IMG/VR virus record: IMGVR_UViG_3300048599_000416 | Span: 2,890 to 66,889 of that record | Reading direction: 5' to 3' (one strand) | From: a virus | Lineage: Duplodnaviria; Caudoviricetes | Length of the DNA: 64,000 nucleotides | Part shown: positions 1 through 63,953 of the stretch, piece by piece | Position numbering within the stretch: the first letter of the stretch is position 1 | Layout: each line of letters starts with the position of its first letter | The notes under the pieces: model-generated | Seen by the model: only the letters and a program-made list of their open reading frames with translations | Database searches by the model: none | What the model was told of the DNA's origin: nothing | Position numbers and translations under genes: made by a program

Positions 1-684
1 AAGATTCCGATAGAGGTATTTCATGTAGCTTGCCCAACCATGATCTTTAAATTTTGAATTGCATACATGGCTTAGCAGACTTTTGATTTGCTCGTCAGTA
101 AAATAATTTGGTAATTCTCTTAACATACTATTCCGTTCATCACTATTGTATGGTAAACCGTCCATTAGCGTATCGAATTCATCAATAAGTTGAGTGACCG
201 TTTTGTTATCATCCTTTGTTATGACAGGCACGCTTTGACTTGTTGAATCTTCTTCGGGTTCGTTGCAAGGCTCAATTGGCTTCTCCTCTGGTTTTGAAAT
301 CTCTTCTATGTTTTGCTCAGGCAAAGAAATTATCTGCTTGTCTTTAGTTCTTAGTTTGAAAATCTCATCATTACTCATCTGGTCATATTTCATGATTTGG
401 TCAAAGTTGATCGAGTAGCGATTCCTTTTTCTTGTTGCTTGCCCTGATTCTTTGTGTATTAGGTTTAGTATTACAAGCTGGTTGATAGCTTTCTGGGCTG
501 TTTTGTCTGTAACGGACAGATTTTTGCAAATGTAGCTGATCGACATCTCAAAAGCCTCATCTTTATTCATTTGCTGGTAGTCTATCATTGTGCCCAAGAG
601 GGCACGCTCAGTTCCTGCCAGTAGTAAGCTTGATTTCTTTGGTAGCTTTATGAATGCGTAATTTTTTTCATTGGTTGATTCCAT
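1..684 (-). CDS. Partial hypothetical protein with a winged-HTH-like N-terminus (runs off the window edge)
   Basis: Manual translation from ATG at 684 gives 228 open codons to base 1 (MESTNEKNYAFIKLPKK...ISYICKNLSVTDKTAQKAINQLVILNLI). It is absent from the ORF track, presumably because no stop codon lies in the window. Confidence 0.6.
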   Translation of the reverse strand, partial: MESTNEKNYAFIKLPKKSSLLLAGTERALLGTMIDYQQMNKDEAFEMSISYICKNLSVTDKTAQKAINQLVILNLIHKESGQATRKRNRYSINFDQIMKYDQMSNDEIFKLRTKDKQIISLPEQNIEEISKPEEKPIEPCNEPEEDSTSQSVPVITKDDNKTVTQLIDEFDTLMDGLPYNSDERNSMLRELPNYFTDEQIKSLLSHVCNSKFKDHGWASYMKYLYRNL

Positions 685-1201
685 TTTGCGGTTATATTAT
701 CCTATTATTTAAGTGGTTATTAATATGATGACTGCACTGGAGCCTAACCACAAAACTCCAGCGCAACTTCAATTATATACATATATTTACAAATATGTAT
801 TCTAAAAGTTATATTGTATTTACAATTACTACAAATGTACTAATATAAATTAATAAAAACAATAATTGTTGAAATTAAAAGTGTGCTGTTTGAGGGATTT
901 GTGTTACTATAGTAAATATTCGTTATTTGGTAATATTCATTGAAATAATTACTTATGGTGTTAAGTAGATATTCCTTTAGTACTGCAGTATAAAATACTA
1001 ACAAATAATAATTATATAATAAATAATATATTAATAAAACATATATAGTAATGACTATATAATTGTTATTTGATAATGTGGTTTTATGTTTATATTACGG
1101 ACGCTTTGTAAGCGTCTGCATAAAGTAATGATTTGGATAACAGGTGAGGGGAGTACGGTGATTGTTCAATGAGAGGGTGACTTAGATTTGCCTCTGCCAT
1201 T

Positions 1202-4054: not shown

Positions 4055-4117
4055 CTCTATATTGAATATTAGTTTGTTTTAGTAAAAATGACTCGCCGGT
4101 TTCACCGGCGTTTTTTC

Positions 4118-5332
4118 TCACACAAACATTTGTTGTAATAATCCCTTTTTCCATCGTTCCATGCTTTCTTTCTGCTGTCCGCAATGGCTGATTTTTTCAT
4201 CAATGGCTGATAGAAAATTGGCGATTTTGATTTGTTCGGGAAGAGAAGGATAAGGTAACTGAGTTTCGCTGAAATATTTATAACTAATCATTTTTCCATC
4301 CCTTATTCCTTCCAGTTTGAGGTTCAGCTGCTTTATGTAACTTGTTGTCTTGAGGAAGTACTTATAAAATCGTCTATCAATTTTAGCTTTTGGTCTAAGA
4401 ATAATATATGCTGGGCTACATATTCCTTTGTATTCTGAATATTCAATGCCACCTTGAAAAGAACGAAGGCTGATGATAAAATCACCAATTTGAACAACTT
4501 TATAACTTTCGACACTTTTATCTGTTACTGTGATATTATAGTCGATTAAATCTCTTGGAATTGCACCTTTATCCTGAGTAATTGCAAGTATTGGTAAATC
4601 TGAATTGTGATTTTTATCCGAAATATTTTCAAACAATTCATTTCCATTCTTTTCTTTCCACTCTGGAAAATCCTCTCCATTCTCATCTTTAAACCGAAGT
4701 TGCTGGCTGAAGATTTGCTGCATCACCCCTTTTTTGTGTTGTTCTAGCAGTTCCTTTTTCTTTTTCAATTGGTTGATCCTGTCATCTACAGCTGTCAGGA
4801 AATTGGCGATTTTGGTTTGTTCGGGAAGGGAGGGATATTGAATTTTAAGTTGATTTAAGTCACGACTATAAATAGCAGCAACACTTGTAGTTCCAGTTGC
4901 AAAACTTCTAAGTTGAAGTATTGTTTTTTTTGTATTGAAGAAATAATTCATATAACGGTTGGTGTTGTCTATACGATTATTAAACTTCAATCTTAAAAGA
5001 TTTGAGTTATATAAAGCAAAAGGCAACTCATTTCTCCAAATGGCAACTTTTCCGACCAAATCTAAAGTGTTACGGGTATTAAAGAGCAAATCTCCTTCTA
5101 ACAATACATCTTCAGGATTATATGTTTGGTCATCTGGCAATGATTGAATTTTATCAAGGACAATATTACCTCTACCGATATTCCCCATTTTTATAACAGG
5201 TATTCCTTTATTAGATTCAGAATTATCATAATTTCCACCCAATCTGCCTTCAACTAAAAGCATACTAAGCTTATCACATCTCCATTCCCCCTCAAACTCA
5301 GGAAACCGCAATTTTGGTACGTTATTTTCCAT
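4118..5332 (-). CDS. hsdS: Type I R-M specificity subunit
   Basis: N-terminal VPKLRFPEF, two TRDs, repeated conserved PSLPEQxKIANFL segments, C-terminal KKGLLQQMF. Confidence 0.97.
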   Translation of the reverse strand: MENNVPKLRFPEFEGEWRCDKLSMLLVEGRLGGNYDNSESNKGIPVIKMGNIGRGNIVLDKIQSLPDDQTYNPEDVLLEGDLLFNTRNTLDLVGKVAIWRNELPFALYNSNLLRLKFNNRIDNTNRYMNYFFNTKKTILQLRSFATGTTSVAAIYSRDLNQLKIQYPSLPEQTKIANFLTAVDDRINQLKKKKELLEQHKKGVMQQIFSQQLRFKDENGEDFPEWKEKNGNELFENISDKNHNSDLPILAITQDKGAIPRDLIDYNITVTDKSVESYKVVQIGDFIISLRSFQGGIEYSEYKGICSPAYIILRPKAKIDRRFYKYFLKTTSYIKQLNLKLEGIRDGKMISYKYFSETQLPYPSLPEQIKIANFLSAIDEKISHCGQQKESMERWKKGLLQQMFV

Positions 5333-5335
5333 AAT

Positions 5336-6904
5336 TTAAAACGGGGTTTTAATATCGAGCTCGGCACAAAATCCTGCAATCAGTTTATCGGTTTCGGTCA
5401 TGGATTTTTCCAGCTCCGTCAGTTCGTTTGCCACAGCGTCAATATCAATCTGGTCTTCTGCTTCAAATGTGTCCACATAACGGGGTATATTCAGGTTGTA
5501 GTCGTTTTCGGCTATTTCCTTTAATGTTGCTCGTTTGCTGAATTTCTCTGTTTCGGTACGTTCGCGGTAGGCAGTCACAATACGGTCAATGTCTTCTTCC
5601 CGCAATACGTTTTGGGTTTTTACCTTTTCGTAATACTGACTGGCATCTATAAAGAGAATATCTGCGGGGTTTTCACGGCATTTCTTGAATACTAATATAC
5701 AGGTAGGTATGCTTGTCCCGTAAAAGATATTGGCAGGTAGTCCAATCACTGCATCCAGATAGTTTCGGTCTTCAATAAGGTACTGGCGTATCTGAAGTTC
5801 TGCCCCACCTCTGAACAGTGCCCCGTGGGGCAATACTACAGCCATAGTTCCGTTGTCGGCCAGTTGGTAAATCATGTGTTGCACAAAGGCAAAGTCGGCT
5901 TTGCTGCTTGGTGCCAGTTTTCCGTACTGGCTAAAACGGTCATCGGTAGTAAATAGTGGATTTGCACTCCAGTTGGCAGAAAATGGAGGATTTGCCACCA
6001 CTGCTTCAAATCGGTGTTCGAGGTGTTGTGGATGTTCCAGAGTATCTTCCTGTCGGAGGTCAAATTGTCGGTAATGTACCCCGTGCAGTATCATATTCAT
6101 TCGGGCAAGGTTGTAGGTGGTACGGTTCATTTCTTGCCCGTAAAAATCACTCACCTCTGTTTCCTTCGCTAATCGTAATAATAAGGAAGCAGAGCCACAG
6201 GTAGGGTCATAAGCCGACTTGAGTTTGGTTTTGCCCGTTGTTACGATCTTGGCCAGAATCTTGCTCACTTGTTGAGGCGTGTAAAATTCGCCCGCTTTCT
6301 TGCCCGCACCGCTGGCGAACATCCCGATCAGGTATTCGTAGGCATCGCCCAATACGTCCGAATCCGTTTCGTGAAGCTTGAAGTCAATCTGGTCGAGGTG
6401 GTACAGTACTTTGGCTATCAACTCATTCTTGGCTGATTCAGTTCGCCCCAGTTTAGTACTGGTCAGGTCGAGGTCTTCAAACAGGTTGTCAAAATCATCC
6501 TCACTGGCTGTCCCCATTGTACTTTGCTCAATGTTTGTCAGAATCTTATGCAGGTCTTCCAGAATAAAGTTATCTTCGCCTTCTTTGTCGCTGTTCCCCC
6601 GCTTTGCTATTTCGCTGAATAGTTCTGATGGTTTCAGGAAGTAACCGAGTTTTTCCAAGGCTTCTTCTTTGATGACTTCCAGATATTCCCTGCCTGCTTC
6701 ACTGGATTCATCAATGTCAAGGTATTTAATTTTGTCTTGAGTTAAGATGAAATCTGCATAGGAGTGCATCTTTTCTGATAGGTATTTGTAAAAAATGAAT
6801 CCCAGTATATAGTCCCGAAATTCATCCGCATTCATCTTTCCCCGTAATGTATTTGCAATGTTCCAAAGTTGCTGTTCGAGTTGTCTTTTTTGATCTTCTG
6901 ACAT
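5336..6904 (-). CDS. hsdM: Type I R-M N6-adenine methyltransferase subunit
   Basis: GEFYTP, YDPTCGS motif I, ANPPF motif IV, YNLNIPRYV C-terminus. Confidence 0.97.
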   Translation of the reverse strand: MSEDQKRQLEQQLWNIANTLRGKMNADEFRDYILGFIFYKYLSEKMHSYADFILTQDKIKYLDIDESSEAGREYLEVIKEEALEKLGYFLKPSELFSEIAKRGNSDKEGEDNFILEDLHKILTNIEQSTMGTASEDDFDNLFEDLDLTSTKLGRTESAKNELIAKVLYHLDQIDFKLHETDSDVLGDAYEYLIGMFASGAGKKAGEFYTPQQVSKILAKIVTTGKTKLKSAYDPTCGSASLLLRLAKETEVSDFYGQEMNRTTYNLARMNMILHGVHYRQFDLRQEDTLEHPQHLEHRFEAVVANPPFSANWSANPLFTTDDRFSQYGKLAPSSKADFAFVQHMIYQLADNGTMAVVLPHGALFRGGAELQIRQYLIEDRNYLDAVIGLPANIFYGTSIPTCILVFKKCRENPADILFIDASQYYEKVKTQNVLREEDIDRIVTAYRERTETEKFSKRATLKEIAENDYNLNIPRYVDTFEAEDQIDIDAVANELTELEKSMTETDKLIAGFCAELDIKTPF

Positions 6905-7122
6905 CGTTATATGATATTACTATAGTATTTTTTACAAAAGTAAGAATTTAAATTTGGAATAGGGATCAGTATAAATGTGATTTGTTGGAATGTGTTCAAA
7001 TGGAAGGTGTGTTCAAATAAATCTATGAGGAGTAGAGAATACTATAGTAAAATATATTCATTTATATCTTTGATTTATTTGGATACATGGTAATTTATAC
7101 TTATCTTTGATTTATAAATCAA

Positions 7123-7761
7123 TTGATTATGAAAACATCAGTAATTTTTGCTAGAGTAAGTAGTACTAATGACCGTCAATCAACGGACAGGCAAGTTTCC
7201 GATTTAATGAAGTATGCTGAAAAAAGTGAATTTCAAGTAGTTAAATCTTTTGAAGAAAAAATATCTGGCGCCAAAAAGAACGAAGAAAGAGAAGTCTTAC
7301 AGGAGTGCATTAGTTATTGTATAGAAAATCAGATAGATAGTCTTTTGTGTTCCGAATTATCCCGTATCGGAAGAAACACCTTGCAGGTCTTGAAGACTTT
7401 AGATGTTTTACATACACATAAAGTCAATGTTTATGTACAGAATTTGGGGTTGAATACATTGACTGACACAAAAGAGGTAAATCCAATAGCATCCATTCTA
7501 ACTACGGTAATGTCTGAGCTTTACGCAATCGAAAGAAGCAATATCCAGTATCGGCTAAATTCGGGTCGTGAGAATTACATTGCCAAAGGAGGCAGACTCG
7601 GTCGAAATGTGGGGAGCCTGAAAAGTCAGGAGGCAAAAAAGGCCGAGTATAAAAAAGCTCTAACGCTTCTCAAGCAAGGCAATTCTGTTCGTAATACGGC
7701 GAAACTGGCAGAAATTGGAGTGAGTACGGTTCAAAGACTAAAAAAGGAATTTGCTTTGTAA
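7123..7761 (+). CDS. Serine recombinase (resolvase/invertase family) with C-terminal HTH
   Basis: Catalytic ARVSS, SELSRIGRN, GGRLGR and terminal HTH (SVRNTAKLAEIGVSTVQRLK). Confidence 0.92.
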   Translation: MIMKTSVIFARVSSTNDRQSTDRQVSDLMKYAEKSEFQVVKSFEEKISGAKKNEEREVLQECISYCIENQIDSLLCSELSRIGRNTLQVLKTLDVLHTHKVNVYVQNLGLNTLTDTKEVNPIASILTTVMSELYAIERSNIQYRLNSGRENYIAKGGRLGRNVGSLKSQEAKKAEYKKALTLLKQGNSVRNTAKLAEIGVSTVQRLKKEFAL

Positions 7762-8217
7762 GCCAAAATAAAAACCGACGTTTCATTCGGCTGTCCGTTA
7801 TTTCTCTAATTTTTATGAAGTAATGGGCATTTATATTTATATAAATATCTATAATATAGCACTATGTGTAAAATGGTCAGTTTTCTTTGTTCTATTCCTG
7901 AACGTGTCAAAATTTTCAAAAAAATTTTTTTTTGAAGACGGTTTGGGGAGAAAGTGATTTTTTTGGGGAATTTTTTTCTCACAAGTGACCGTTGGGGCAA
8001 TACAGACAGACGGTAGGACGGGGTGATATAGGGGAGTACCCCGTAAGGGAGGGGTGACGATAAAACACAGACATTCAAATAGATACAATTTATCAATAAT
8101 TTGAATATTTGTCAAAAACGTCGCTAAAACCGATTCAAAACATGGGAAAAAGTATGATAAAAGTATGATAATTAAAAAAGCACCTACAATTTTTATCTTG
8201 TAAGTGCTTGATTTTGA

Positions 8218-8266
8218 GTGGGCCCAACAGGGCTTGAACCTGTGACCCCCTGATTATGAGTCAGGT
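8218..8266. repeat. attL: 49-bp duplication of the tRNA 3' part
   Basis: gtgggcccaacagggcttgaacctgtgaccccctgattatgagtcaggt is identical to 63878-63926. Confidence 0.95.
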
Positions 8267-10812: not shown

Positions 10813-11628
10813 ATGAATACAACAGTTCAATTGTTCAACAATCCTCAGTTCGGAGAAGTACGGGTGGTTAGAAGAGAAAACAACGAAGTATTTTTTGTCG
10901 CAAACGACGTTGCTAAAATTCTTGGCTATATCTATCCTGCAAATGCAATTCAGGATCATGTGGATGAATATGATAAAATAATAGTTCAACTATCTGATAT
11001 TCAAGACGTGGACAAAACGCCCCATCTGAAAGGAAGTAGAATTACCATTATCAACGAATCAGGTGTTTATTCATTAGTATTTGGCTCGAAGCTGGATTCG
11101 GCCAAGCAATTCAAAAGATGGATTACGGCTGAGGTGTTACCGGCAATCAGGAGAACTGGAGGCTACATGATGACCCGACCGGAAGAAACGCCGGAGGAGA
11201 TAATGGCAAGGGCTTTGAAGGTGGCAGAAGAGACACTGGAGCGTCACCGGCAGCAAAACCAAATGCTGATGGGCGAAAATCAATCTCTTAACAACGAAGT
11301 GAGAACGCTGGCGCCCAAAGCACAATATTTTGATGAGGTGTTGCAAAGTACGACTACCTACACCATGACACAGGTTGCAAAAGAATTGGGAATGTCGGCT
11401 GCGGCTCTTGAACGATTACTACACCAAAAAGGCATCATTTTCAAACAAAGTACCACATGGCTTCCATACAGCAAATATCAGGGTATGGAATACCACAAAT
11501 TCAGAACGCACCGGTACATCAAAGCAGACGGTACCAACGGAAGCAATACAATACTGGTATGGACTGAAAAGGGAAAGCATTTTATCCATGAGGTATTCAA
11601 CCGTAAACAGAATGTGAATATTAGATAA
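10813..11628 (+). CDS. BRO-N plus ANT/KilAC antirepressor
   Basis: FNNPQFGEVRVV...FVANDVAKILGY...INESGVYSLVFGS...FKRWITAEVLPAIRRTGGY followed by LAPKAQYFDEVL. Confidence 0.9.
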   Translation: MNTTVQLFNNPQFGEVRVVRRENNEVFFVANDVAKILGYIYPANAIQDHVDEYDKIIVQLSDIQDVDKTPHLKGSRITIINESGVYSLVFGSKLDSAKQFKRWITAEVLPAIRRTGGYMMTRPEETPEEIMARALKVAEETLERHRQQNQMLMGENQSLNNEVRTLAPKAQYFDEVLQSTTTYTMTQVAKELGMSAAALERLLHQKGIIFKQSTTWLPYSKYQGMEYHKFRTHRYIKADGTNGSNTILVWTEKGKHFIHEVFNRKQNVNIR

Positions 11629-12119: not shown

Positions 12120-12221
12120 TTCCGATTAGCTCAGTTGGTAGAGCGGTAGGTGCTTTTAACCTAAAAACGAAACGGAGAAGCAAGTATTTACAGGTCGCGG
12201 GTTCGAATCCCGTGTCGGGAG
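12120..12221 (+). ncRNA. tRNA-like RNA (Lys/UUU-like, aberrant anticodon loop, 33-nt variable region)
   Basis: Acceptor ttccgat/gtcggga, D arm GCTC-agttggta-GAGC, stem TAGGT-gctttta-ACCTA, T arm GCGGG-ttcgaat-CCCGT. Confidence 0.65.
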
Positions 12222-16931: not shown

Positions 16932-17165
16932 ATGAAAACACCAGAAGAATATTTAGAAGAATTCACCATGGACATATCAACCGAAGGAGATATGTCATCT
17001 CCACACAAAGCTGTTGATATGATTGAGTTGATAAAAAAGGTTCAAAAAGATGCATATAATCAGGCATTGGAAGATGTAGCTGAAAAGCAGGAGCCAATTT
17101 ATAATGATTGTGCTGATGTTGATTATTACGTTCTTGTGGAAACAATCTTAGAACTAAAAAAATAA
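16932..17165 (+). CDS. Hypothetical phage protein
   Basis: 77-aa ORF in operon. Confidence 0.55.
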   Translation: MKTPEEYLEEFTMDISTEGDMSSPHKAVDMIELIKKVQKDAYNQALEDVAEKQEPIYNDCADVDYYVLVETILELKK

Positions 17166-17166
17166 T

Positions 17167-17583
17167 ATGCTGACACTATCTGTAAAACAACCTCATGCAC
17201 TATTGATTTGCGAGGGGATAAAGCCGATCGAGAACCGGTCGTGGAAACTGCCGGAAAAGTATAAAGGCGAAAGGGTATTGATACACGCCTCTATGAAACC
17301 CGATAAGATACGATTTGAAGTTCCGGGAGAGGCTTCGTGTATGAAGATTATGCAATCGGCGGCATTGAACCGGGCAGAAGAGGATAATTTATTCGGATGC
17401 ATTATCGGATCGGTGCGGATAGTGGACTGTGTACAACATCATATTTCGGAATGGGCCATCCCGTTCTATTGGCACTGGATGTTGAAATATGCTATCCTTT
17501 TTCCGAAACCAATACCGGCCAAAGGAAGGTTGGGGTTTTGGGATTTTGATTTGCCGGAAGAATACAAACAATTAATTCCATAA
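17167..17583 (+). CDS. ASCH domain protein
   Basis: LSVKQPHA..ICEGIKPIENRSW...VLIHAS...PIPAKGRLGFW. Confidence 0.88.
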   Translation: MLTLSVKQPHALLICEGIKPIENRSWKLPEKYKGERVLIHASMKPDKIRFEVPGEASCMKIMQSAALNRAEEDNLFGCIIGSVRIVDCVQHHISEWAIPFYWHWMLKYAILFPKPIPAKGRLGFWDFDLPEEYKQLIP

Positions 17584-17585
17584 TT

Positions 17586-17807
17586 ATGTCACAAGAAATT
17601 AAAGTAGAAACTTTCTCAAATGCAGGCAAGTGGGATTACCCAACTATTAATGTAGAATCCAACTCATTTATATATTCATCTCCTTACGAAAATATGTATG
17701 GATTACAGTTGTCTGAAAAATTACAATCTAATAAAGATCAGATAAAGACACTTTGCGATGAAATATCAAAGAACGTTTACGAATTGTTTAAACTGATAAA
17801 TAAGTAA
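17586..17807 (+). CDS. Hypothetical phage protein
   Basis: 73-aa ORF in operon. Confidence 0.5.
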   Translation: MSQEIKVETFSNAGKWDYPTINVESNSFIYSSPYENMYGLQLSEKLQSNKDQIKTLCDEISKNVYELFKLINK

Positions 17808-17851
17808 CCAAGAACGTAACCAACTAACTAACCAAGTAAGTAACTAAGCAT

Positions 17852-18175
17852 ATGTACACAAATTACGATCTGATCAGGTTTGGCAATTTTCTGCTAAATA
17901 AAGCGGGTATTGAACATAAGGAAATAACGCTGGATGTCGTGAAAGAATGGAAGAACCTCACTAAAGTAGGTTTGAAAGCATCAAAGTTGAATGCTTATAT
18001 CGATCACAACATCACCAAGGCAGAGAATGGTGGTTTGCTCTTCTTTGAACACAAAGGAGAGACGTTATCTAAGCCAATAGCATTACTGATATTGAAGTCG
18101 GCCAAAGCCGTCGGATATGTTTTAGTAGCGGATATTCCGGATCAATTTGTGGATGAAATACTGGAGAGGTTATGA
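17852..18175 (+). CDS. Hypothetical phage protein
   Basis: 107-aa ORF in operon. Confidence 0.55.
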   Translation: MYTNYDLIRFGNFLLNKAGIEHKEITLDVVKEWKNLTKVGLKASKLNAYIDHNITKAENGGLLFFEHKGETLSKPIALLILKSAKAVGYVLVADIPDQFVDEILERL

Positions 18176-18474
18176 AACGGGTGAAGGGTGTTTTGTTTAG
18201 CAACGGTAGTGAGCTAATGAGTTGGACCGGAAGAAACTGTGAACAGTGTTGGAAGCATAGCCGGTTTGTTGCGAAAACGGATAGTTATACCCGCTTTCGT
18301 TGTTCAATCGATTTGCAGATTCAGCAACAGGTAGCCGGACTGGATGGATCGGACATGGTATATCCGAAAACAGTTGAGGCGGTATCGATGGCCGATTGTC
18401 CGCAACGCGAAAAGACTCAGAAAAAATACAGCAGGGGTTTGAAGGGAATGAAAAATTTATTTGAAAATGAGTAA
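18172..18474 (+). CDS. Cys-containing hypothetical protein (CxxC)
   Basis: ATGA overlap; CEQC plus additional Cys residues. Confidence 0.55.
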   Translation: MKRVKGVLFSNGSELMSWTGRNCEQCWKHSRFVAKTDSYTRFRCSIDLQIQQQVAGLDGSDMVYPKTVEAVSMADCPQREKTQKKYSRGLKGMKNLFENE

Positions 18475-18892
18475 AGATAGTAAGCAAACAGAACCGGATT
18501 ATTGCGGTCGGATCCTCATAAAATTGAAACGGCAATACGGCAAGGATGAGGTAGTGGCTGCTTTGATGAAGGAAGTAAAAGAGAAGGATGTGGAAATTGG
18601 TCAGCTGAAAGCTGAGGTAGATCATCTAAGCTATGAGAAATCTAAGCTTTATCAAAAAGAAGTAGAACAATTTAAGTTGAATAATGCAATTTCTTTAGGA
18701 AAAGAATTGGCTGGAAAGGCGAGTGGTGTTCCTCCCGAAATAATACGAGAAGCGCGCATTTCGGTAAGAAAAGAGGAGCTATATAAAAATCTGAGGACTG
18801 AAAACGCCAGCCTGAAAGAGCGGATAAAGAAACTCAGAAATGAATTGGGAGAGGTAATTGCCAGGAATAGGCAGTTGATGTTGGAGAAATAA
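18467..18892 (+). CDS. Coiled-coil hypothetical protein
   Basis: Charged heptad-rich ORF; its TAA stop forms part of the TAAC of the attC-like site. Confidence 0.6.
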   Translation: MSKDSKQTEPDYCGRILIKLKRQYGKDEVVAALMKEVKEKDVEIGQLKAEVDHLSYEKSKLYQKEVEQFKLNNAISLGKELAGKASGVPPEIIREARISVRKEELYKNLRTENASLKERIKKLRNELGEVIARNRQLMLEK

Positions 18893-19018
18893 CGGATTGG
18901 CGGTATGATTAGCCGCCCATAGAAATAACAAAACTTTCAAAATACAATAACAATGCAGAACGCAAACACTTCAACCACAGAGCAAAACGGGCGGTTAAAT
19001 ATACCGATTGTTAGCTCC
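18883..19018. other. attC-like long imperfect inverted repeat
   Basis: TAAC(18890)...CGGTAT..TTAGCCGCCC pairs with GGGCGGTTAA..ATACCG...GTTA(19013), with bulged bases and a 70-nt loop. Confidence 0.6.
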
Positions 19019-19636
19019 CAGCCTTTTCGTATTCTCAATTTACAAGCTGGATTGGGTGGTAATAGAGTAAAATGGAGCGGAAATATACACATAACCGCTG
19101 TTGAAATTGATCCAAAGATTGCTGCCATTTATAAAGCCAATTTTCCAAATGATACTGTAATTATTGGAGATGCAATGGATTACTTAAAAAAACACAGGAA
19201 TGAATTTGATTTTATATGGAGTTCTCCCCCTTGCCAAAAACATAGCAAGATGATGAAAGCGACAAGACATGATGTAGCTGATTTTATTGATTTACAGCTT
19301 TATCAAACCATTATATTTTTGAAGCACTTTTATAAAGGGAAATGGATTGTTGAAAATGTAAAACCTTATTATGAACCGCTTATTAAGCCAACAAAAGTTT
19401 TTGGACGACATTTGGTTTGGAGCAACTTAGATTTAACAGACTTTAAAACTGAAAATGTACCAAACTTTATCAAAGGAGATTCACCAACCGAAATAGAAGC
19501 TCTTAAAAAATGGTTAGGGATAAAATACGACGGAAATATCTACTACGGTAAGAATCATTCACCTGGTCAAGTATTGCGAAATTGCGTTAACCCTGATTTA
19601 GGGCTGCACATTTTAAATGCGGTTCTATCTCTTTAA
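18953..19636 (+). CDS. Short C5-cytosine DNA methyltransferase
   Basis: ILNLQAGLGG motif I, WSSPPCQ motif IV, IVENV motif VI. Confidence 0.85.
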   Translation: MQNANTSTTEQNGRLNIPIVSSQPFRILNLQAGLGGNRVKWSGNIHITAVEIDPKIAAIYKANFPNDTVIIGDAMDYLKKHRNEFDFIWSSPPCQKHSKMMKATRHDVADFIDLQLYQTIIFLKHFYKGKWIVENVKPYYEPLIKPTKVFGRHLVWSNLDLTDFKTENVPNFIKGDSPTEIEALKKWLGIKYDGNIYYGKNHSPGQVLRNCVNPDLGLHILNAVLSL

Positions 19637-19701
19637 GGTTGGAGCTAACTATTATCTATCAAAACCATTTATAAAATAATTAATAACCAATACTTTAAGG
19701 C

Positions 19702-20535
19702 ATGAATATCGGAAACTACACCAATCAACTTTCCAGGAGTTTGGAGTACAGAATGTATTCGGAGAATACGGTGAGAGCGTATGTGGAACAGATTCAAAAG
19801 TTTCTGAAATATTTTGAACCGGTGGCCTCAAAGCCTTCCGAAATTTCGGCAAAGCAGATAAAAGAATACCTGTCAAGCCTTGGAAGTTATTCATATCATA
19901 AAGCAGCGTTGTGTGCTATCAAATACTTTTACAAGGAGGTGGGAAAGCAACCGCGTAAACTGGATGACGTGAAGTTTCCACGTAAGCAGCAGAGATTGCC
20001 TCAAGTATTGAGCCAACAGGAGATACAGCGGATGTTTAATGCCTGTACCAATACAAAGCACAAAGTCATACTGTCGCTATTGTATGCCACAGGCTTACGG
20101 GTGTCGGAATTGATAAACCTGAAATGGGAGAATATTGACCGACAAAGAATGGTTATCAATATTATTACAGGAAAGGGTAATAAGGATCGCCAGGTGATGT
20201 TGCCGGAAATGTTGATTCCATTATTCACAAAATACTGGATGGAATACCGGTCGAAAGAATACGTGTTGAACGGGCAGTTTGAACCACAGTATTCGCAAAC
20301 AAGCGTGTTGCAGGTGGTAAAGCAATTAGCGGCAAAGGCCGGGATAAATAAACGGGTATACACACATTTAATGCGGCACTGTTCGTTTACACACATGGTG
20401 GAAAACGGTACGGACATCAACCTTATACAGCGCATTGCAGGGCACAAATCGGCAAAAACTACTGCTATTTATACCCATATTTCGCACAATATCATCAGTA
20501 AAATACAATCGCCTATTGCGATGATTCAATTATAA
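19702..20535 (+). CDS. Tyrosine recombinase (Xer/integron-integrase-like, SAM-like N-domain, no IntI insertion apparent)
   Basis: YATGLRVSE, GKGNKDR, HLMRH, AGHKSAKTTAIY catalytic residues; 277 aa. Confidence 0.92.
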   Translation: MNIGNYTNQLSRSLEYRMYSENTVRAYVEQIQKFLKYFEPVASKPSEISAKQIKEYLSSLGSYSYHKAALCAIKYFYKEVGKQPRKLDDVKFPRKQQRLPQVLSQQEIQRMFNACTNTKHKVILSLLYATGLRVSELINLKWENIDRQRMVINIITGKGNKDRQVMLPEMLIPLFTKYWMEYRSKEYVLNGQFEPQYSQTSVLQVVKQLAAKAGINKRVYTHLMRHCSFTHMVENGTDINLIQRIAGHKSAKTTAIYTHISHNIISKIQSPIAMIQL

Positions 20536-20593
20536 CAACAAAATAAATAGCAGAGATAAGAAATAGTTTTTTATCTTTGCAAACCAGGCTATC

Positions 20594-21571
20594 ATGTTCG
20601 ATTGGATAACGATTCGTGCCCGCGTAAGTGACGATGTGCGCAACCAGTTGGTTGCAAAGCATTCGCTGAGAGAATGTCGCGGAACGAGTGGTGCGGTTGA
20701 GTATGATAGCTCCGGCATATCCAATATTCACGGGCTTTCGGTGAGTATAAAAAAGAATGTAGTTACTCTGCGAACCTCGTTGCACAAGTATTACGACAAT
20801 CGTAATTTCGGCACCGGAGTAGGCAGGGGTTTGAATGTGACGCTGTTTGACCGAGTTAGTGCGGTGGCGGCATTTCACAATTTACTGGCAGAAAACTTCC
20901 TGAGGGAAGATGCTACCAAGGTTTTGAAGTTCGAGATCGGGTTGAATCTTCACATGAAGATGGAACCAGTAGAATATATAAAGCTGATACGCGCTATAGG
21001 TGTACAGACGAAGTGTTATTTTGAAGATGCAAACTACCGGCGCAACCGGCAAAAGACAACGGAGAAGCACAAAGACATACGTAAGTTCTTCAAGATATAC
21101 GATAAGGGCTTTGAGCGATTTGAAAAGGAACGCCGAAAGGAAGTGAAAGAAAGAGGCATTGAAGAGAATCTGTTGCGGATTGAAACGGTGTATAAACGCA
21201 ACTCAACAAAGGCAGATAATTTTCTGAGTGATAGCAATATAAATAGGTTGTTCGATCAATTTTTTGAGGATTGGTCGTCTGCCCTTTTTTTGCGCCGTGT
21301 GCGAGCCGATAAGGGCATACGAAAAAGTGAGCTGGACAGAGCTGAACGCATTTTCAATATCGGACCGGAAGAATACATGCGACAAGCGGCAGAACTATAT
21401 AAACAGGGACATTTGACGGAGAAGCAGTACCGGACCATCCGGGAATTCGTTCGGGATTTCGATAAACTGAAACATAATTTTAAGGTAGAAATATCGCCGC
21501 TGGAAAAAGAGTTTTTCAAAGTATTAAAGTCAACATTTACAAAGTGTTGCGGACGAAATGGCGATCAATAA
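20594..21571 (+). CDS. Putative replication initiator (Rep_trans / phage gene II-X-like)
   Basis: DW at the N-terminus, SLHKYY, FEIGLN, KIYDKG, LLRIE motifs resemble rolling-circle Rep_trans initiators; TATCTTTG promoter motif at 20572-20579. Confidence 0.6.
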   Translation: MFDWITIRARVSDDVRNQLVAKHSLRECRGTSGAVEYDSSGISNIHGLSVSIKKNVVTLRTSLHKYYDNRNFGTGVGRGLNVTLFDRVSAVAAFHNLLAENFLREDATKVLKFEIGLNLHMKMEPVEYIKLIRAIGVQTKCYFEDANYRRNRQKTTEKHKDIRKFFKIYDKGFERFEKERRKEVKERGIEENLLRIETVYKRNSTKADNFLSDSNINRLFDQFFEDWSSALFLRRVRADKGIRKSELDRAERIFNIGPEEYMRQAAELYKQGHLTEKQYRTIREFVRDFDKLKHNFKVEISPLEKEFFKVLKSTFTKCCGRNGDQ

Positions 21572-21882
21572 AAAACTGAATTGATTTTAGGTATTTTTGA
21601 AAAACGTTAAGCGCTGATTATTAAATAGTTATAAAATATAATTTATTGATAATCAGGCACATGCCCATAAGGTCAATTGTATAATTAAAAGTAAATCAAA
21701 AAGATACGGTTTGTAAACCGTTGTAAACTGTTGCAAAATCCGGGTTTTGGCTATATTTAAGGAGCCAGTGCCCGGATATTTTTTTGTCTGTTTGAAATGA
21801 TGTAGTTGTGGTAGCTAGTACTATACTGCCCGAAGGGTAGCGGGTACGAAGTACACGCTAAAGAGGGCAGAAACTTGTCAGA

Positions 21883-21917
21883 TTAATGGTTAATGATTAA
21901 TGGTTAGTGGTTAATTA
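21883..21917. repeat. Degenerate heptamer tandem repeat (TTAATGG)x5
   Basis: ttaatgg ttaatga ttaatgg ttagtgg ttaatta. Confidence 0.75.
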
Positions 21918-22806
21918 TAAATCATAAATGATTGTATGTTAGATTTATAGGCTATTTTGTGGTTGTGGTTGGAATGTTATTTGAATCTAAAGTAGAAAGA
22001 AATAGAAACAAAGAAAAAATGGGACGTTTTAAGCGAGTTTAAGCAATTGAATGTGGAAAGTATCGGTTGAGGTAGGTTGATTTAAACTGAAGCTTATTTC
22101 TGATAAAATAGAATAATATTAGAAGGTGTGATGTAAAGCAAAAAAAAGCACCGGTTAAGGTGCTTCTGTAATCACGTTTTTTGCACGTGTCGAAATATTT
22201 TGATTTTGTAGACATGAAAAATTATACGTTGCTGCTATACTTACCATTTTCCTGATGTCGGGAATATGATAAAGAAATGTGATTTTATTTACACGTTTGT
22301 GCGATATGAAAAAGAAACGCGATTTTCTTTGCATGAAAAAAGCACCGGTTAGAGTGCTTCTGTTATTTTTTGATTACGCTTCCATTTATCGAGCGCAAGA
22401 GCAATTGCCAATTTAATTGTGGGAGATCCTTCGTAAATCCATTTCCCGACATCATCTGTAATTTTAAGAGCCTTCAATGAATTTGCAATGTGATAATCGA
22501 CCTTGTAATCCTCGTATAGTTTCTTTATCACTATAGTTCCGGCCTCATGCCGATATTTATACGAAATTAAAAACTTCAACAGTTTATCAATATATTCCTG
22601 TCGGGGGAAGAGATACTATAAATCATTCAGAGAGTATTTGATTTCGTCTGCGAATGGTTCGTCTATTTTGGATATAGAACCTAATTTACCTGTGTTTTGT
22701 GCCATTGTGTAAAATATTAAAATTGTATTGCAAAGATACTGCATTTACAAAGCAAATCACAACTATTTGTTTCTGTTGTTCAGCATATTTTTGAAATAAC
22801 CAATAC

Positions 22807-22834
22807 AAAAGCCCCACGTTACTGTGAGGCTTTT
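22807..22834 (-). terminator. Intrinsic terminator downstream of the terS-like gene
   Basis: aaaagcc...ggctttt hairpin next to the stop at 22836. Confidence 0.6.
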
Positions 22835-22835
22835 A

Positions 22836-23114
22836 TTATTGAGTGAGATTATCGATTTTCTTCATTGCCTGATTCCAAGATTCGAAGGCTTTTTGATCGA
22901 AATTGACTTCTTCTTTCTTAGGAATGACAAAGCTCATCATCTTTGTAAGAATAGCCCATTGCGTTTCCCGATCGAGTTTGGAGAATGTATAATTCAAACG
23001 TTCCGTATTCGCGGATACGAATTGTAATACCCATTGTTTGAGTTCGGCAGAAGTTTTATTTTTAGTTCCCTTCTTTCTTCCTCCTGTTTTGACTGATCCT
23101 TTTGCGCGCGGCAT
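22836..23114 (-). CDS. Putative terminase small subunit
   Basis: KTGGRKKGTKNK N-terminal motif typical of TerS-like proteins; divergent from the portal gene. Confidence 0.55.
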   Translation of the reverse strand: MPRAKGSVKTGGRKKGTKNKTSAELKQWVLQFVSANTERLNYTFSKLDRETQWAILTKMMSFVIPKKEEVNFDQKAFESWNQAMKKIDNLTQ

Positions 23115-23185
23115 AACTATAAAATTAAAAATATGTCGAAAATAAAGCTTTCTGATTGAACCTTATGCAACTGCAATAAAGAAAA

Positions 23186-23200
23186 TGTCATCGTGGGCAA
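23186..23200 (+). promoter_or_regulatory. Candidate late regulatory motif TGTCATCGTGGGCAA, copy 1
   Basis: Identical 15-mer at 46825-46839; both copies lie in divergent intergenic regions upstream of virion operons. Confidence 0.5.
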
Positions 23201-23244
23201 GGTATGCCGGTTAAAAAGCTTTTTTTTGTTCAAAATATAGGACA

Positions 23245-31113: not shown

Positions 31114-34100
31114 ATGGACAACATAAATAATGTATTACAGCAGTATGCAGCCACGGCAGCAAATCCTAAATATAAAGGCGACTGGAATGTGATTAATTCT
31201 AAATTTCCTGAACTGAAGGGATTTGACACAAAAGTATTACAGCAGTATGCAGCCACGGCAGCAAATCCAACCTATAAGGGAGACTGGAACGTAATTAACT
31301 CTAAATTTCCTGAACTGTTTCCAAAAAACATGAATGGGAAAGGAGTGTTGGCGCCAACGGTTAATACCAATCTTCCGGGAATGACTGTGCCTGTTCAGCA
31401 AAAATCAACGCAACAGATTGTGAAAGAGCATCCGAGTTGGGGGCAAAACAATAACAATGCACCTGATGAAGAATGGACGAATACGGTAGATCCGACATTA
31501 GGACAACAAGTGGTACAAGGTGCAAAAGATTTTGGACATGCAGCCTACACGGGAGTAAATCAGTTAGGAAACAACATTTGGAATGCTGTAAATGAAGGAG
31601 CCATAAAAGTGGCTCAACTGGAAGGAAAATTGTCGGATAATCCTACTTGGCAAGATCACGTTCAAAACGTGATAAAAGGATCGCGTGAAAATCAAAAGTC
31701 AATGTCGGATTGGTCACAAACGCACCAACCAGCGGATAATATTGCCGGTACATTGGGTGGTGTAGTTCCATATTTAGCTAAAGGTGTAATGGATATTACA
31801 ATGCCGGAAACAGCATTGTTCACTACCGGAGCATTGGGCGTGTTGGGAATAGGAGAAGGAATGGCCGCTTATGATGCCAGAAAACAGGCAGAGGGCGTAA
31901 ATCCAAATAATTACAGTGCTATTGATGAATTGAAAAAAGCCGCGTTGGGACTGACTTATGGTTTGGCATATTCAGCGCCGTTGGGAAAATACGGAAAAGC
32001 AATGAGCAAAGTAGTTCCAGAAAGCGTTAGAAAAGGAATTGCCGATCGGTTTTTAGGATCACCGGAAGGCCAACAGGTAATGAATGGTATATACGAGAAG
32101 TTAGTTAGTCAGGTACCTTCAAACGGGAAAATATTGGCTCACAACTTGGTTAAATCAGTTGTTGGCGGAACTGGTGCAATGGCGGCTATGCAAGGAATAA
32201 AAGATTTGGGAGATGTAACGATGACCAATAAAAAATATTCTTTGGCGGACATACAAGATCAGTTAGCCTCTTCGGTAGAACAAGGATTGATATTTTCGGC
32301 CCTTGCTCCACTGTCGGCCCATGCCAATATTGCAAACCGTAAGCAACGGTGGAACGCGCAGAAAGAGGCCACATTTACGTTTGGTAATGACGGAAAACCG
32401 ATTGAGGTAGTGTTTGATCGAAAAGGAAATCCACAAGGATATGATCTGTTTGGAAAAGCCGTAAAGTTATCACCCGAACAGCAAGCTAATACAATCAGTG
32501 TTCCTTCTGATGTTTTGAGTAGTGGAATAGAGCAGTACAAGAAAAGCGGAACATTGCCGACTGATTATGATCGTCAGGTGTACTCCGGTCGTTTGACCAA
32601 TGCGCTTAAAAACATCTCGGATGCGAATGGTAATGTTGCTATTCCATCCGATGAAGGAACGGGAGTAATGGCAATTGTCGGAAAAGGTCAGGATGGTAAC
32701 TATCAGGGCATAGACCATTCAGGTCAGCCGGTGCAGGTAGATGCTAACACACCACTCAAACAAGTGCATGTGTCGGATGTTTACAATGCGCTGATGTCGA
32801 AATACGATGAGGTGAATGGACGAAAAAAAACGGGTTCGGAACAACCTCTTTTAAATAATGAGCCAACACCTGCTCCTGAAGTAACCCCCGAACAGCAAGC
32901 CGTCAACGACATTCACAACAGTTCCAATCCGGATATGAACGCCATAGTACATGCCAACATAGCCGGAACGGATGCGCCGGTGCGAATTGTAAAAGGAAAT
33001 ATTGCCACCAAAGAAGATGGGACAATAGACCGTGGCGCGTCGGATGAGGCAGTATATTATCAGGATGCGGATGGAAAAACAAAGATAGCACCTATCGACA
33101 ATGTGACAGAACTGGCAAGTAATGTGCCGGTAGATGCAGCAATAGGACAAATCCAGCAAAAGATGGCAGCTGCCAATCTTGCATCGCAATTACAGGTTGG
33201 AGATACCGGTGCCATGCCTGATGGTACCACGTCGACTATAGAACAAATAAATCCTGATGGTACCTTTCAACTAGAGGTTGAAATGCCGGACGGGTCAGTA
33301 CGTCGGGCAATTGCTCAATCGGAAGAAATGGCGGGATTGGGATTTACCACTCAAACTTCTAATGAAAGCATACCGACACCTGTTGCCGAATCGTCTTCCC
33401 CTAAATCCCCTGAAGGGGACTTGCAAGCCGCGACCTCTCCTCAACCCCTCTCCCAAGGTGAGGGGCAAACGGAAATGCCTACCCCTCAATCCCCTGAAGG
33501 GGACTTGAAATCGGTAGCTTCACCTGCATCAATTCCCACGGATGAAAAGGGGAAACGACTTTTTGAGCAAGCTCCTGTAGAAGCAACCATAGGCGCGTTC
33601 AAAGAAGCGTACGACACACCGGAGAAATTATCCGGAGCGGTAGATGCCGTGATCAATCGTTTATCAACTCAGATGAAAAAAGCCGGTAAGCCGAAACTAA
33701 CCGGTGATCCTGATGTGGATATGCAAAATGAATTGGCAGCCAAACAGCAGATAAAAGATATTCAGACAAAGCTTGATTATTGGAAATCGGTGAACGACGC
33801 ATTATCTGCTGAGGCGATGCAGGGTGCAGACTCGCACGAAGCAGTATGGCAAAATACAGCAGACAACAGTACCGATCCTAACGAAATAGCCAACGCTTAC
33901 AACCAGGCAAAAGAAGCCGGAGGATTTGATGCGGTAGAACCATGGCAGCAACAGCTGGTAGGCATGAAAGTCCATCCCGAAAGTTGGAACCGATTTGGCG
34001 ATCGCAACAAAGCCGGGGATATTAAAGCATGGCTTTCGCCTAAGAAAGAAGCGCTGACGCCAGATAACTCAATAGATACCATTGCACAGGCATTGTCGGA

Positions 34101-37100
34101 TACATACGGAGTTGAGGTAACTCCACAGGCAATCGTTGATTTTATCGATAATAACCCAAAGAATAAAATAGAACCATCGAACGTCTATATGCGCGATTTG
34201 GATAAACGCTTTTCGGAAGTAGCAACAAGCATATCCGGCCATAAGGTAGGAGGAGTGGAAAGTCCGTCGGGAAAGCTATTTTTGTCGATGTTTGGAAAGC
34301 AGACTGCCCCTAAATCCCCTGAAGGGGACTTGGAATCTGCGACCTCACCCCAACCCCTCTCCCAAGGCGATTGGCAATCTGCGGAGGAAATATTGAATGA
34401 TCCGTTTGCGGATATGGCAGATAGGGTGAAGGCGGCAAATGAGTTGATCGCGAAATATGAGGAGAATTTTCCTCATGCAGTAAAAACGACAGTTTGTGCC
34501 ACGTCGGAAGAGTTTGTACAACAATTCGGAAAACAAGCTAACTTTGTATCGGAAGAGTTGAAACAAAAAAAGATAACTGGCGCTTATAACGAAGGCAATG
34601 TATTCATCCATTTGCCGGATGTGCTCGATACGCCGGAGCTGGAAAAGACATGGAAGCATGAACAGCAACACGCTGTAAATGCAGAAAAAGATTTGACACC
34701 ATTGTACGATGCGCTGGGAGACGGGGAAATGTCGAAGACAATACCCGGATACCGGAATATGAGCATCAATGAAATTGTTGATGAACATATAGCCTATAGC
34801 GCCGAAACATACAATCCGGATAAAAGTCGTGGATTGGTAGACGATTTAATCAAAGAAAATCTAAACATACTTACAAATGGAACAACAGATGGAATCGATC
34901 AGTATCCCGATGCGGGACGAGGAGGGGAACAACGTGGGCTGGTTGCGGTCGGCAGTGACACCGGAACAGAAGAAAGAAATAACGCGCCTGACCAACGAGG
35001 AGGGGATGACGCTGGACGAAGCGATGGACAAGGTGGTGCCGAAAAGAGCCAAGAACAAGGAGTAAAGAGCCAAGAGGCTACCTCTAACCCATCCCAAGAA
35101 GGGAAACAAACATCTACCCCTAAATCCCCTGAAGGGGACTTGGAATCTGAACCCACTGCCCAATTTAAGGCATCGGACATTAAAGAGGGGGAAGGAATAC
35201 CGCAATATGTGGATCGTGTAGTGCAGGAAAAGCAGATACACGACGAACTTCAACGCGTCAATACAGAACCTACAGAGGCACAAAAAGAAGCCGGAAACTA
35301 TCAGAAAGGACATATAACCGTGCAGGGAATGGACATTTCCATTGAAAACCCTGTGGGATCGGTGCGCCGTGGAGTGGACGAAGACGGGAAAGCATGGGAA
35401 AACACCATGCAGACCAGTTACGGATACTTTAAGCGCACGGAAGGAAAAGACGGCGACCATATCGATGTGTTTGTCGGTCCGGATGTTTCCAGTGAAAAAG
35501 TATTTGTGGTAGACCAGAACAACCCCACCACCGGCGCATTCGACGAAAGCAAGGTGATGTTAGGATTTGATACGCCGCAAGTTGCAAAAGAAGCCTACCT
35601 GTCGAACTACGAACCCGATTGGAAAGGATTTGGAGCTATTACAGAAGTATCGGTAGAAGACTTCAAAAAATGGTTGTATGACGGTGCCAAACAGCGGAAA
35701 CCGTTTAGCGAGTATGTAGATACACCGGAAGCGGTTCGTTTACGTACAGACAGAAGCGGAAATGAAATTGGAGATGGTGGCTGGAATGTGGAGCCGGAGA
35801 TTATGGATTTTAAAGAGTATCCACAGATTACAAGTAATGTAAACAAAAGCCAGACAACAGAAAGTACATATGTAACTTATACTAACAAAGACAATAGCAA
35901 ATCAATTACGGTACGCTTCTCGAACCATGAAAACAATGCCGTAAAATTTGGCGATCAGTTGAATGGTTATACAGCAACAGCCAATCAAATATTGTACAAA
36001 TTAGGACTTAAAACAAGAGATTTTATTCCTGAAAAATATTTATCAATTTGGGCAACGCAAGTAAAACGAAAAGATGTAGGTAATTATGAAATGGCAGATA
36101 AAACCATGCCAGAATTATATGCGCTTGGGAAAGATGCTGACCTGTCAGATTACAAAGGAAAGGTAGCTAAAAACAGCAATTGGCTAATTTTAGGAGACAA
36201 GGTTTCAGAACTAGACAAAACAACCAGAGACGCTTTTGGAAACAGCGTAAGACTTGGTAAATACGAATACCACGACATTACTCCAGAGGAATATGCCAAA
36301 CAAAATTCGGAAAGTAAAATTCGTTTTCGCAGAGAAGAACAAAGTGAAATAATACAAAATGCAAAACAATATGCAGATGTAGAAGACTTCATATCGGCAT
36401 ACAAAGATGCAGATTTCAGGGATGCACATTCATCTCCCGGATTTGATGACACTCCAAGTGAACAGAAAATAGAAGACGGAGGTGATTTTTCGTTAGTAGA
36501 AGTAGCTAATGGATTCCATAATCAACCAGACGACTATTTTGCTCCAAGAATAGGTGCAAGATATTACGGATATGACGATAAAGAAGGAATGCAAAGTTAT
36601 TATGCAATAAAGAAGGCTATTGACGAAATAAAATCAGGAAAGAAAAATGTAAAAATAACGGCTTACAGAGCTATACCGAAAGAAGTAGAACAAAAAAAAC
36701 TTATAGATAGAGATTGGATAACATTCTCACGTGAATATGCTGTATCACACGGAGAATATCGTTTTGGAGAAAAACAATACCGGATTATTAAGCAAAACGT
36801 ACCAGTTGAACATGTTTGGTGGGACGGTAACGACATAAACGAATGGGGTTACGACACAGGCCAAACAACTACATTTGGACGATCTGATTTAAAAACAATT
36901 TGGGAACAAGCACAGGCTCCAAAGTTCCGCATCATAGGCGAACGTGGTGCAGCCAGAATGGAAGATGCTGAAAATATCATCGATAATCTGAAAGTAGCAA
37001 AGGAGATGGAAGCAGCCGGAAAACAACCGAAAGAGATACGTCTTGCTACCGGATGGGAAAAAGGAATGGATGGATTGTGGCGGTATGAGGTGCCGGATGC

Positions 37101-56506: not shown

Positions 56507-56599
56507 ATAGAGCAACGACCTTGCCACTTGGCAAAAAATATCATCAATAAAAGGAGTTGGTAGGCATTAGCCGAAAGCCCCGGACATTAAAGCAAAGCA

Positions 56600-63693: not shown

Positions 63694-63877
63694 GGTATGT
63701 GGTGTTTCTTGAAAATTTTTCAATAATTCTGCAACGGTTTGCAATGCATTGCAACGGTTTACACTTTGAGATATTGAAAAATTATTGAGAATTTGAGTCT
63801 TAAGAGACATAAAAAACAAAGATTTTCAGAATTTATAAATATATAAACAACTGAAAATCTTTGCTTTTACATTAGGG

Positions 63878-63926
63878 GTGGGCCCAACAGGGCTTGAACC
63901 TGTGACCCCCTGATTATGAGTCAGGT
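63878..63926. repeat. attR (within the intact tRNA)
   Basis: Identical to 8218-8266. Confidence 0.95.
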
Positions 63927-63953
63927 GCTACTAACCAACTGAGCTATAGGCCC
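63879..63953 (-). tRNA. tRNA with CAT anticodon (Ile2 or Met)
   Basis: GGGCCTA acceptor, CCTGA-CTCATAA-TCAGG anticodon arm, ACAGG-TTCAAGC-CCTGT T arm; no encoded CCA. Confidence 0.93.

Follow-up and report, generated by a model that had tools for sequence, protein, structure and literature searches.

What is a tyrosine recombinase gene doing deep inside a prophage, next to a small DNA methyltransferase gene that begins within a long hairpin? The question is raised by a 64,000-nt stretch of DNA from a virus of the class Caudoviricetes, referred to here as the window, which corresponds to positions 2890-66889 of the 66.9-kb IMG/VR virus record IMGVR_UViG_3300048599_000416. A preliminary description of this sequence interpreted the locus as an integron-like cassette with the recombinase gene enclosed in its own recombination site. 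Comparison with related loci points to a different arrangement, to which we assign a probability of about 80%: the region 18890-20535 appears to be an integron-like platform with one cassette, comprising the gene for a 277-aa recombinase, an attI-like site and an inserted methyltransferase cassette, within a prophage integrated at a tRNA-Met gene. The cassette and the recombinase thus belong together, as initially supposed, but lie side by side rather than one inside the other; the recombinase gene is part of the fixed backbone.

Delimited by comparison with its relatives, the cassette is the 756-bp segment 18894-19649, which holds the methyltransferase gene only and is bounded by the TAAC motifs at 18890-18893 and 19646-19649 (Table 1). 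The left junction has the same form as those of 50 curated cassettes from related loci, and the gene upstream of it is assigned to the backbone, rather than to another cassette, because its end has no partner box upstream. The 5' end of the cassette is an attC-like folded site that consists of a 5' arm (~18894-18918), a terminal loop of ~70 nt (~18919-18988), a 3' arm (~18989-19009) and the R box GTTAGCTCC (19010-19018), the last of these at the hairpin's foot. The circle junction, obtained by joining the two ends of the cassette, folds at -18.6 kcal/mol. The attC-like hairpin of the preliminary description coincides with the single match to our covariance model of such sites in the window (18882-19021, 76.9 bits, E = 3.7e-13); no Rfam family matches at this site. 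The methyltransferase start codon (18953) lies within the terminal loop, and residues 1 to ~19-22 are encoded by the 3' arm of the hairpin together with the R box; homologs of this protein span only 87-90% of its 227 aa, and most of them lack the first ~22 residues. At the other end of the cassette, the core of the attI-like site reads GCTAAC^TATTATCTATC (the caret marks the junction), with TAAC^TATTATCTATC occupying 19646-19660. Searches of the window for further cassettes, by TAACG patterns, by the site model and by looking for a box that would pair with the upstream gene's end, yielded none, that is, the array consists of a single cassette.

Table 1. Coordinates of the platform, of its surroundings and of the enclosing prophage in the window.
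Feature	Position	Strand	Evidence or remark
Backbone gene, 143-aa coiled-coil protein	18461-18892	+	Stop codon TAA inside the left junction TAAC
Left junction TAAC	18890-18893	+	Backbone half of the original attI-like site
attC-like folded site, cassette 5' end	18894-19018	+	Circle-junction fold, covariance-model match, covariation in 25 aligned sites
Cassette gene, small C5 cytosine DNA methyltransferase, 227 aa	18953-19636	+	PF00145, 4.4e-12
Cassette right end GTTGGAGCTAAC	19638-19649	+	GGAGCTAAC (19641-19649) complementary to 19010-19018
attI-like insertion site TAAC^TATTATCTATCAAAAC	19646-19665	+	37-56 nt 5' of the recombinase start codon
Xer/IntI-like tyrosine recombinase, 277 aa	19702-20535	+	PF00589, 2.6e-37
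Inverted match (11/14) of the preliminary description	20555-20568	+	Not part of the system
Prophage left end	8218-8266	+	49-bp perfect direct repeat, tRNA-Met 3' part
Prophage integrase, 453 aa	62458-63819	-	Abuts tRNA-Met (63877-63953)

The delimitation of the cassette hinges on a short inverted repeat: the last nine nucleotides of the cassette, GGAGCTAAC, match the R box GTTAGCTCC at an offset of 116 nt from the cassette start. By statistics alone, this repeat (12 nt at 92%) ranks only 22nd among 60 inverted pairs in 2.6 kb; nevertheless, comparative evidence shows that it is functional, as related cassettes pair their own 3' ends with a box about 116 nt inside. The preliminary description was right in likening it to the R'/R'' ends of an integron cassette. 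This own-end rule was derived from a curated set of 54 cassettes (50 unique, 165-1358 bp) in 11 loci, chosen by the junction motif only. For the 50 unique cassettes, a GTT box in the first 40-136 nt (115-122 nt from the cassette start in about half of them) agrees with the 9 nt before the cassette's own right AAC at 6.78 of 9 positions on average, compared with 4.28/9 for the end of the array neighbor and 4.08/9 for the ends of other cassettes; none of 2000 permutations reached the observed mean (p < 5e-4). The rule holds as well for an independent set of 83 covariance-model sites in 34 loci outside the curation. A partner downstream, within the own cassette, was detected with at most one mismatch for 37 of the 83 sites and with at most two for 69; the respective counts were 1 and 9 of 71 in the upstream control, and 0.7% and 7.5% when the targets were taken from other loci.

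Examination of the folded sites reveals one common architecture. For 25 sites of the long class, the circle junction was made by joining each cassette's own end to its start, and in the resulting alignment 92% of the cells are canonical. The outer (R) stem consists of 11 bp, of which nine positions are paired in all 25 sites, with 3-5 pair types each; inside it follow a 4-nt one-sided internal loop after AAC, ~15 bp of bulged inner stems, and an A-rich terminal loop of 60-70 nt that holds the ATG of the cassette gene. In the array context, where the 5' strand of the outer stem belongs to the neighbor, only 40-52% of the cells are paired at the three variable positions of the outer stem; the inner helix retains 13 of 13 pairs and shows compensatory changes. 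Covariation scores 0.438, compared with 0.176 in shuffles (0/500) and at most 0.153 in slid controls. Fourteen shorter sites resemble classical attC sites. Because G.T greatly exceeds A.C in the paired columns (63 versus 6) and 21 of the 25 sites are more stable as the + strand, the coding-sense strand appears to be the one that folds.

The behavior of these units was traced in a comparison set of 28 viral loci and several metagenome contigs that carry homologs of the recombinase, none of which has the neighboring genes of the window. Each of the recombinase homologs (39-80% identity) is preceded, 40-60 nt 5' of the gene, by TAAC and a T/A-rich run. In loci with ~99% identical recombinase regions, the DNA rightwards of this TAAC is identical and the DNA leftwards is unrelated. 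The arrays upstream are built of 290-350-bp modules that are 97.7-100% identical but differently ordered in two pairs of loci (L018/L021 versus L020/L022); each module boundary has the form TAAC^G(G/T)TT, followed by a hairpin; the breakpoints are confined to a 5-nt interval. Two loci (L021 and L017) share the end of the backbone and continue with different first modules. Site-specific insertion of cassettes at a single place next to the recombinase would be expected to produce these features.

Gain or loss of such DNA is seen in cultured phages as well. The genomes of the Polaribacter phages Freya_1 (MT732463) and Freya_10 (MT732472) are 99.9-100% identical except for one insert of 4.9 kb with 12 small genes, located at AAC^ directly 5' of the gene for a 271-aa homolog of the recombinase; together with the reordered modules, this agrees with the earlier suggestion that accessory genes are shuffled in phages of Bacteroidota. 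The original report on these phages names the 271-aa gene an integrase, without mention of cassettes (PMC8776804), and we found no description of this recombinase-cassette system in the searchable literature. The genome lengths of the ten Freya isolates lie between 43,978 and 48,920 bp.

A search of 1.08 Mb (the window and the loci) with the covariance model produced 149 matches. All but two marginal ones lie either on the strand of the recombinase gene and 5' of it (phage type) or on the opposite strand and 3' of it (bacterial type); the latter layout was observed, for example, in Lutibacter holmesii, Algoriphagus, Subsaximicrobium and uncultured Flavobacteriaceae, where the recombinases are 33-40% identical. 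Relative to the polarity of the sites, the recombinase gene is found at the same end of the array in either layout. Each cassette contains one sense-strand open reading frame (ORF), with a mean length of 114 aa; the mean for the opposite strand is 37 aa. DNA methyltransferases account for 8-9 of the 48 cassette proteins, and the others, apart from one weak match, belong to no Pfam family. Many metagenome contigs begin or end 50-850 nt 5' of the recombinase gene (L117, L118, L002-L004, L012 and L025), as would be expected if arrays that vary within a population break assemblies at the insertion site.

The methyltransferase itself is found both as a cassette and as a plain gene. A bacterial contig (L125) contains an orthologous cassette with 84.6% nucleotide identity, where the homology ends exactly at window position 19649 and the right neighbor is another cassette; its R boxes, GGCGTTAAC/GTTAACGCC, differ from those of the window by two compensatory double changes that alter two codons. 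The same C5 methyltransferase is encoded, with 75-78% nucleotide identity, by overlapping phage operon genes on two further contigs (L126:1074-1697 and L127:3208-3882), without the hairpin or the TAAC ends. The comparison of these genes with the window may offer a view of how a cassette arises: an ordinary phage gene may turn into a cassette when it gains a 5' hairpin, from which its start codon and its first ~20 codons would then derive. This origin is amenable to testing because the same gene is available with and without the site.

The 277-aa protein is a tyrosine recombinase in which the catalytic residues R133, K158, H222, R225, H248 and Y257 are invariant among 16 homologs. It scores below every curated NCBIfam cut-off: the best profile is XerA_Arch (204.6 bits, cut-off 220), followed at a distance from their cut-offs by XerD (180.2 versus 329.6) and XerC (161.1 versus 335). 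The integron-integrase hidden Markov model (HMM) TIGR02249 gives 178.1 bits in two stretches, against a cut-off of 265, and PRK15417 gives 118 bits against 435. The closest solved structures are those of XerA (5hxy and 4a8e), with VchIntIA next. In the phmmer alignment with the latter (2a3v), query residues 13-175 correspond to IntI 12-177 and residues 198-273 to IntI 243-318; the alignment skips IntI residues 178-242, such that ~43 IntI residues, including helix I2, have no counterpart, in line with the initial impression that the IntI-specific insertion is lacking. Thousands of 277-aa homologs are present in metagenomes, many on contigs of 30-55 kb. The conserved site 5' of the recombinase gene is not an obvious dif-type dyad, as far as can be told from inspection with no dedicated dif model applied. 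We also considered the possibility that the 277-aa protein is the integrase of the prophage and rejected it: a separate 453-aa integrase is encoded at the tRNA-Met repeats, and the recombinase gene lies 11 kb inside.

If the locus functions as an integron-like platform, the cassette would be excised as a circle, with its ends joined at TAA^C, which would yield ...GGAGCTAAC^GGATTGGCGG... as the junction of the circle and ...GGAGAAATAAC^TATTATCTATC... as the empty site. The full stem would form on the coding-sense strand once the cassette is circular. In this folded form the single strand would be recognized by the recombinase; after a cut in TAAC, the partner in the exchange would be either the attI-like site or a second site of the same kind, in the way that integron integrases act on attC and attI. 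In this manner, phages and chromosomes of Bacteroidota could trade small accessory genes, often orphan DNA methyltransferases that would protect against restriction. The odds seem to us slightly in favor of a broader proposition, namely, that a recombinase lineage without helix I2 operates a complete integron-type system, with folded single-stranded sites as its targets, in the chromosomes and phages of Bacteroidota, be it a sister or ancestral form of the integrons or one of independent origin.

Several points weigh against the interpretation of the locus as an integron-like platform. For the window, the excision, the circle and the empty site are deduced from sequence comparison, and reshuffling is seen in relatives, the window itself having only one cassette; the curated junctions were selected by eye from the junction motif; and the folded strand is the mRNA sense strand, such that RNA folding near the start codon could account for part of the G.T bias and of the inner stems. 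Furthermore, the recombinase is devoid of helix I2, which integron integrases use to read extrahelical bases, so that its recognition of a folded site can only be presumed; here, the attP site of the CTX phage, which is recombined as a folded single strand by XerCD, provides a precedent for a reaction of this kind catalyzed by Xer-type enzymes without I2. We consider it unlikely that the recombinase performs an ordinary phage function, as a second integrase or an Xer-like dimer resolvase, with the modules reshuffled by homologous or illegitimate recombination at short junctions, as proposed for the T4-like promoter-stem-loop cassettes. Such a scenario would accommodate the Xer-like HMM profile of the protein (XerA best at 204.6 bits) and the ~20 nt of consensus common to the junctions, and the role that we ascribe to the recombinase is a prediction from sequence; yet the complementarity of own ends is cassette-specific and covarying, and homologous exchange neither needs nor maintains such pairing. 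Nor would this scenario be expected to confine the breakpoints to 5 nt or to fix the polarity and side of the array with respect to the recombinase in two gene orientations, and the prophage already possesses an integrase and tRNA-Met att repeats of its own.

It is less probable still that the long hairpins are mainly RNA elements, that is, 5'-untranslated-region structures that control translation, with the start codon in the loop and with a secondary role, if any, in recombination. The identity of the folded strand with the mRNA sense strand, the location of the ATG in the loop in most cassettes, and the tolerance of G.T together with the avoidance of A.C would all fit an RNA structure. Against this stands the outer stem, which forms beside the inner helix only with the distal end of the same cassette, that is, in a circular topology; moreover, the module boundaries coincide with the foot of the stem, and the site matches no Rfam family. 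The geometry originally drawn from the repeats appears the least credible of the alternatives. It envisaged a self-mobile 1556-bp circle (19011-20566) that includes the recombinase gene, with G^TT crossovers at 19010/19011 and 20566, and the inverted repeats in question are indeed present where they were placed (GTTAGCTCC, 19010-19018; GGAGCTAAC, 19641-19649; AACTATTATCTATC, 19647-19660; GATAAGAAATAGTT, 20555-20568). However, the 11/14 match beyond the recombinase is at the chance level (10 matches in the window, with 8.9 expected) and is conserved in no homologous locus. In the relatives, homology blocks break at the TAAC 5' of the hairpin, not at the GTT box, and whole hairpins travel with the downstream gene, which places the crossovers at TAA^C in 18890-18893 and 19646-19649; the homology with the orthologous cassette of L125 likewise ends at 19649. 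The recombinase gene lies outside the 756-bp unit and stays fixed while the cassettes vary, so that the cassette is not self-mobile; of the flanking inverted ends and variable upstream cassettes predicted for homologous loci, the variable cassettes were found, but no site is conserved 3' of the recombinase. Altogether, we regard the integron-like platform with a single cassette as real, with catalysis by this recombinase on a single-stranded substrate, as well as the exact phosphate that is cut, presumed; the key repeat had been recognized correctly in the preliminary description, and the geometry derived from it was wrong.

The platform is embedded in a ~55.6-kb prophage (8266-63878) that is integrated by the conventional 453-aa integrase and flanked by two identical 49-bp copies of the tRNA-Met 3' part in direct orientation (8218-8266 and 63878-63926, which is 11107-11155 and 66767-66815 in the record). 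Because the tRNA-Met repeats mark its ends, the prophage was integrated by a system other than the 277-aa recombinase. The genes of the prophage include those for a P22-like portal protein, an SU10-type capsid protein, a diversity-generating retroelement and antirepressors; the cassette and the recombinase gene are located 11 kb inside, between the early and the packaging genes. A blastn search of 17000-23200 against phage records gave no match.

The gene directly downstream of the recombinase (20594-21571) encodes a 325-aa protein without Pfam or PHROG matches, the look-alikes of which in the ESM-Atlas belong to Phage_CRI/replication-initiation-factor clusters (feature score 0.97; structure TM 0.77-0.86). 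These models make a rolling-circle initiator probable, which could be a supplier of single-stranded DNA; the gene is not a conserved neighbor of the recombinase in other loci. Relatives of this gene, sought in viral contigs in order to locate an empty site in a sister phage, were not found. No + strand ORF of at least 90 aa is present in the ~1.7 kb (21572-23244) that separate the initiator-like gene from the portal gene. On the other side of the platform, the intergenic segment 17808-17851 is built of repeated TAAC/AAC units (GTAACCAAGAACGTAACCAACTAACTAACCAAGTAAGTAAC), where the site model gives no match.

Several further features of the record were observed. A third copy of the tRNA-Met 3' segment (55 bp, 94.5% identity) is present left of the window, at record bases 119-173; because there are three such copies, two elements are arranged in tandem at tRNA-Met, an ~11-kb island on the left, which includes window positions 1-8266 and carries a type I restriction-modification system and a serine recombinase, and then the prophage. 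A tRNA-like element at 12120-12221 passes the Rfam tRNA gathering score (39.7 bits) and is not called by ARAGORN. In the diversity-generating retroelement (56517-57577), an RT-17 RNA (Rfam, 49.8 bits) lies directly 5' of the reverse transcriptase gene. In the structural region of the prophage, positions 31114-43248 are occupied by one single ORF of 4044 aa.

Among the known systems, integrons, for example those of class 1 and the chromosomal integron of Vibrio cholerae, are the closest parallel. Shared with them are the single recombinase gene next to an insertion site that stays fixed and to a series of cassettes with one gene each; the imperfect palindrome in each cassette, conserved in structure and variable in sequence, with ..AAC/GTT.. 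termini; the complementarity of each cassette's own end to an inverse box of the same cassette, from which a circular intermediate and a crossover in AAC/GTT have classically been deduced; the strand-biased folding; and methyltransferases in the cargo. There are differences as well: here, the recombinase is without the ~43-residue IntI insertion that includes helix I2 and scores below the IntI HMM cut-offs, the site occupies the 5' end of the gene and has the start codon in its loop, many of the sites are of considerable length (~125-140 nt), the recombinase gene is co-directional with the cassettes in phages, and the hosts are Bacteroidota and their phages. IntegronFinder surveys detected almost no integrons in Bacteroidetes (PMC9024848), and the capacity of integrons for single-strand recombination is attributed to the innovation of I2 (PMC7790495). 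Qi et al. (2023) reported canonical integrons and clusters of attC sites lacking integron-integrases (CALINs) in 21 phages, likewise with cassette-type sites in phage genomes and methyltransferases in the cargo; unlike the sites described here, those are canonical attC sites recognized by IntI1, mostly without an integrase (PMC9892861). Polaribacter phage P12002L, named in that study, has no recombinase homolog in its annotation and no match to our site model.

Among the enzymes with solved structures, the closest relatives are the archaeal XerA recombinases. Xer enzymes act in the resolution of dimers, at a single dif site, or in the integration of a whole phage, and the 277-aa recombinase misses all Xer equivalog cut-offs. 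To our knowledge, no cassette arrays are associated with Xer enzymes. An ordinary phage integrase, acting on attP and attB, differs in that the 277-aa gene is not located at a prophage end with att repeats. Small gene modules at short recombination or stem-loop sites that are reshuffled between replicons are also represented by the pdif modules of Acinetobacter plasmids and by the T4-like promoter-stem-loop cassettes. A pdif site is a 28-bp double-stranded target of XerC/XerD, and such sites come in inverted pairs; no dedicated recombinase is known for the T4-type cassettes, and we are aware of no own-end covariation in either system. The Polaribacter phages Freya_1 to Freya_10, which differ only by cassettes, represent a ready laboratory model. 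If the interpretation is correct, phages possess a dedicated device for trading counter-defense genes, such as orphan methyltransferases, and a widespread integron-like system with a simpler enzyme would require revision of both the dependence of such systems on I2 and their near-absence from Bacteroidetes. Next to the integrons, it would then be a second natural structure-specific recombination system, of use for comparison and engineering.

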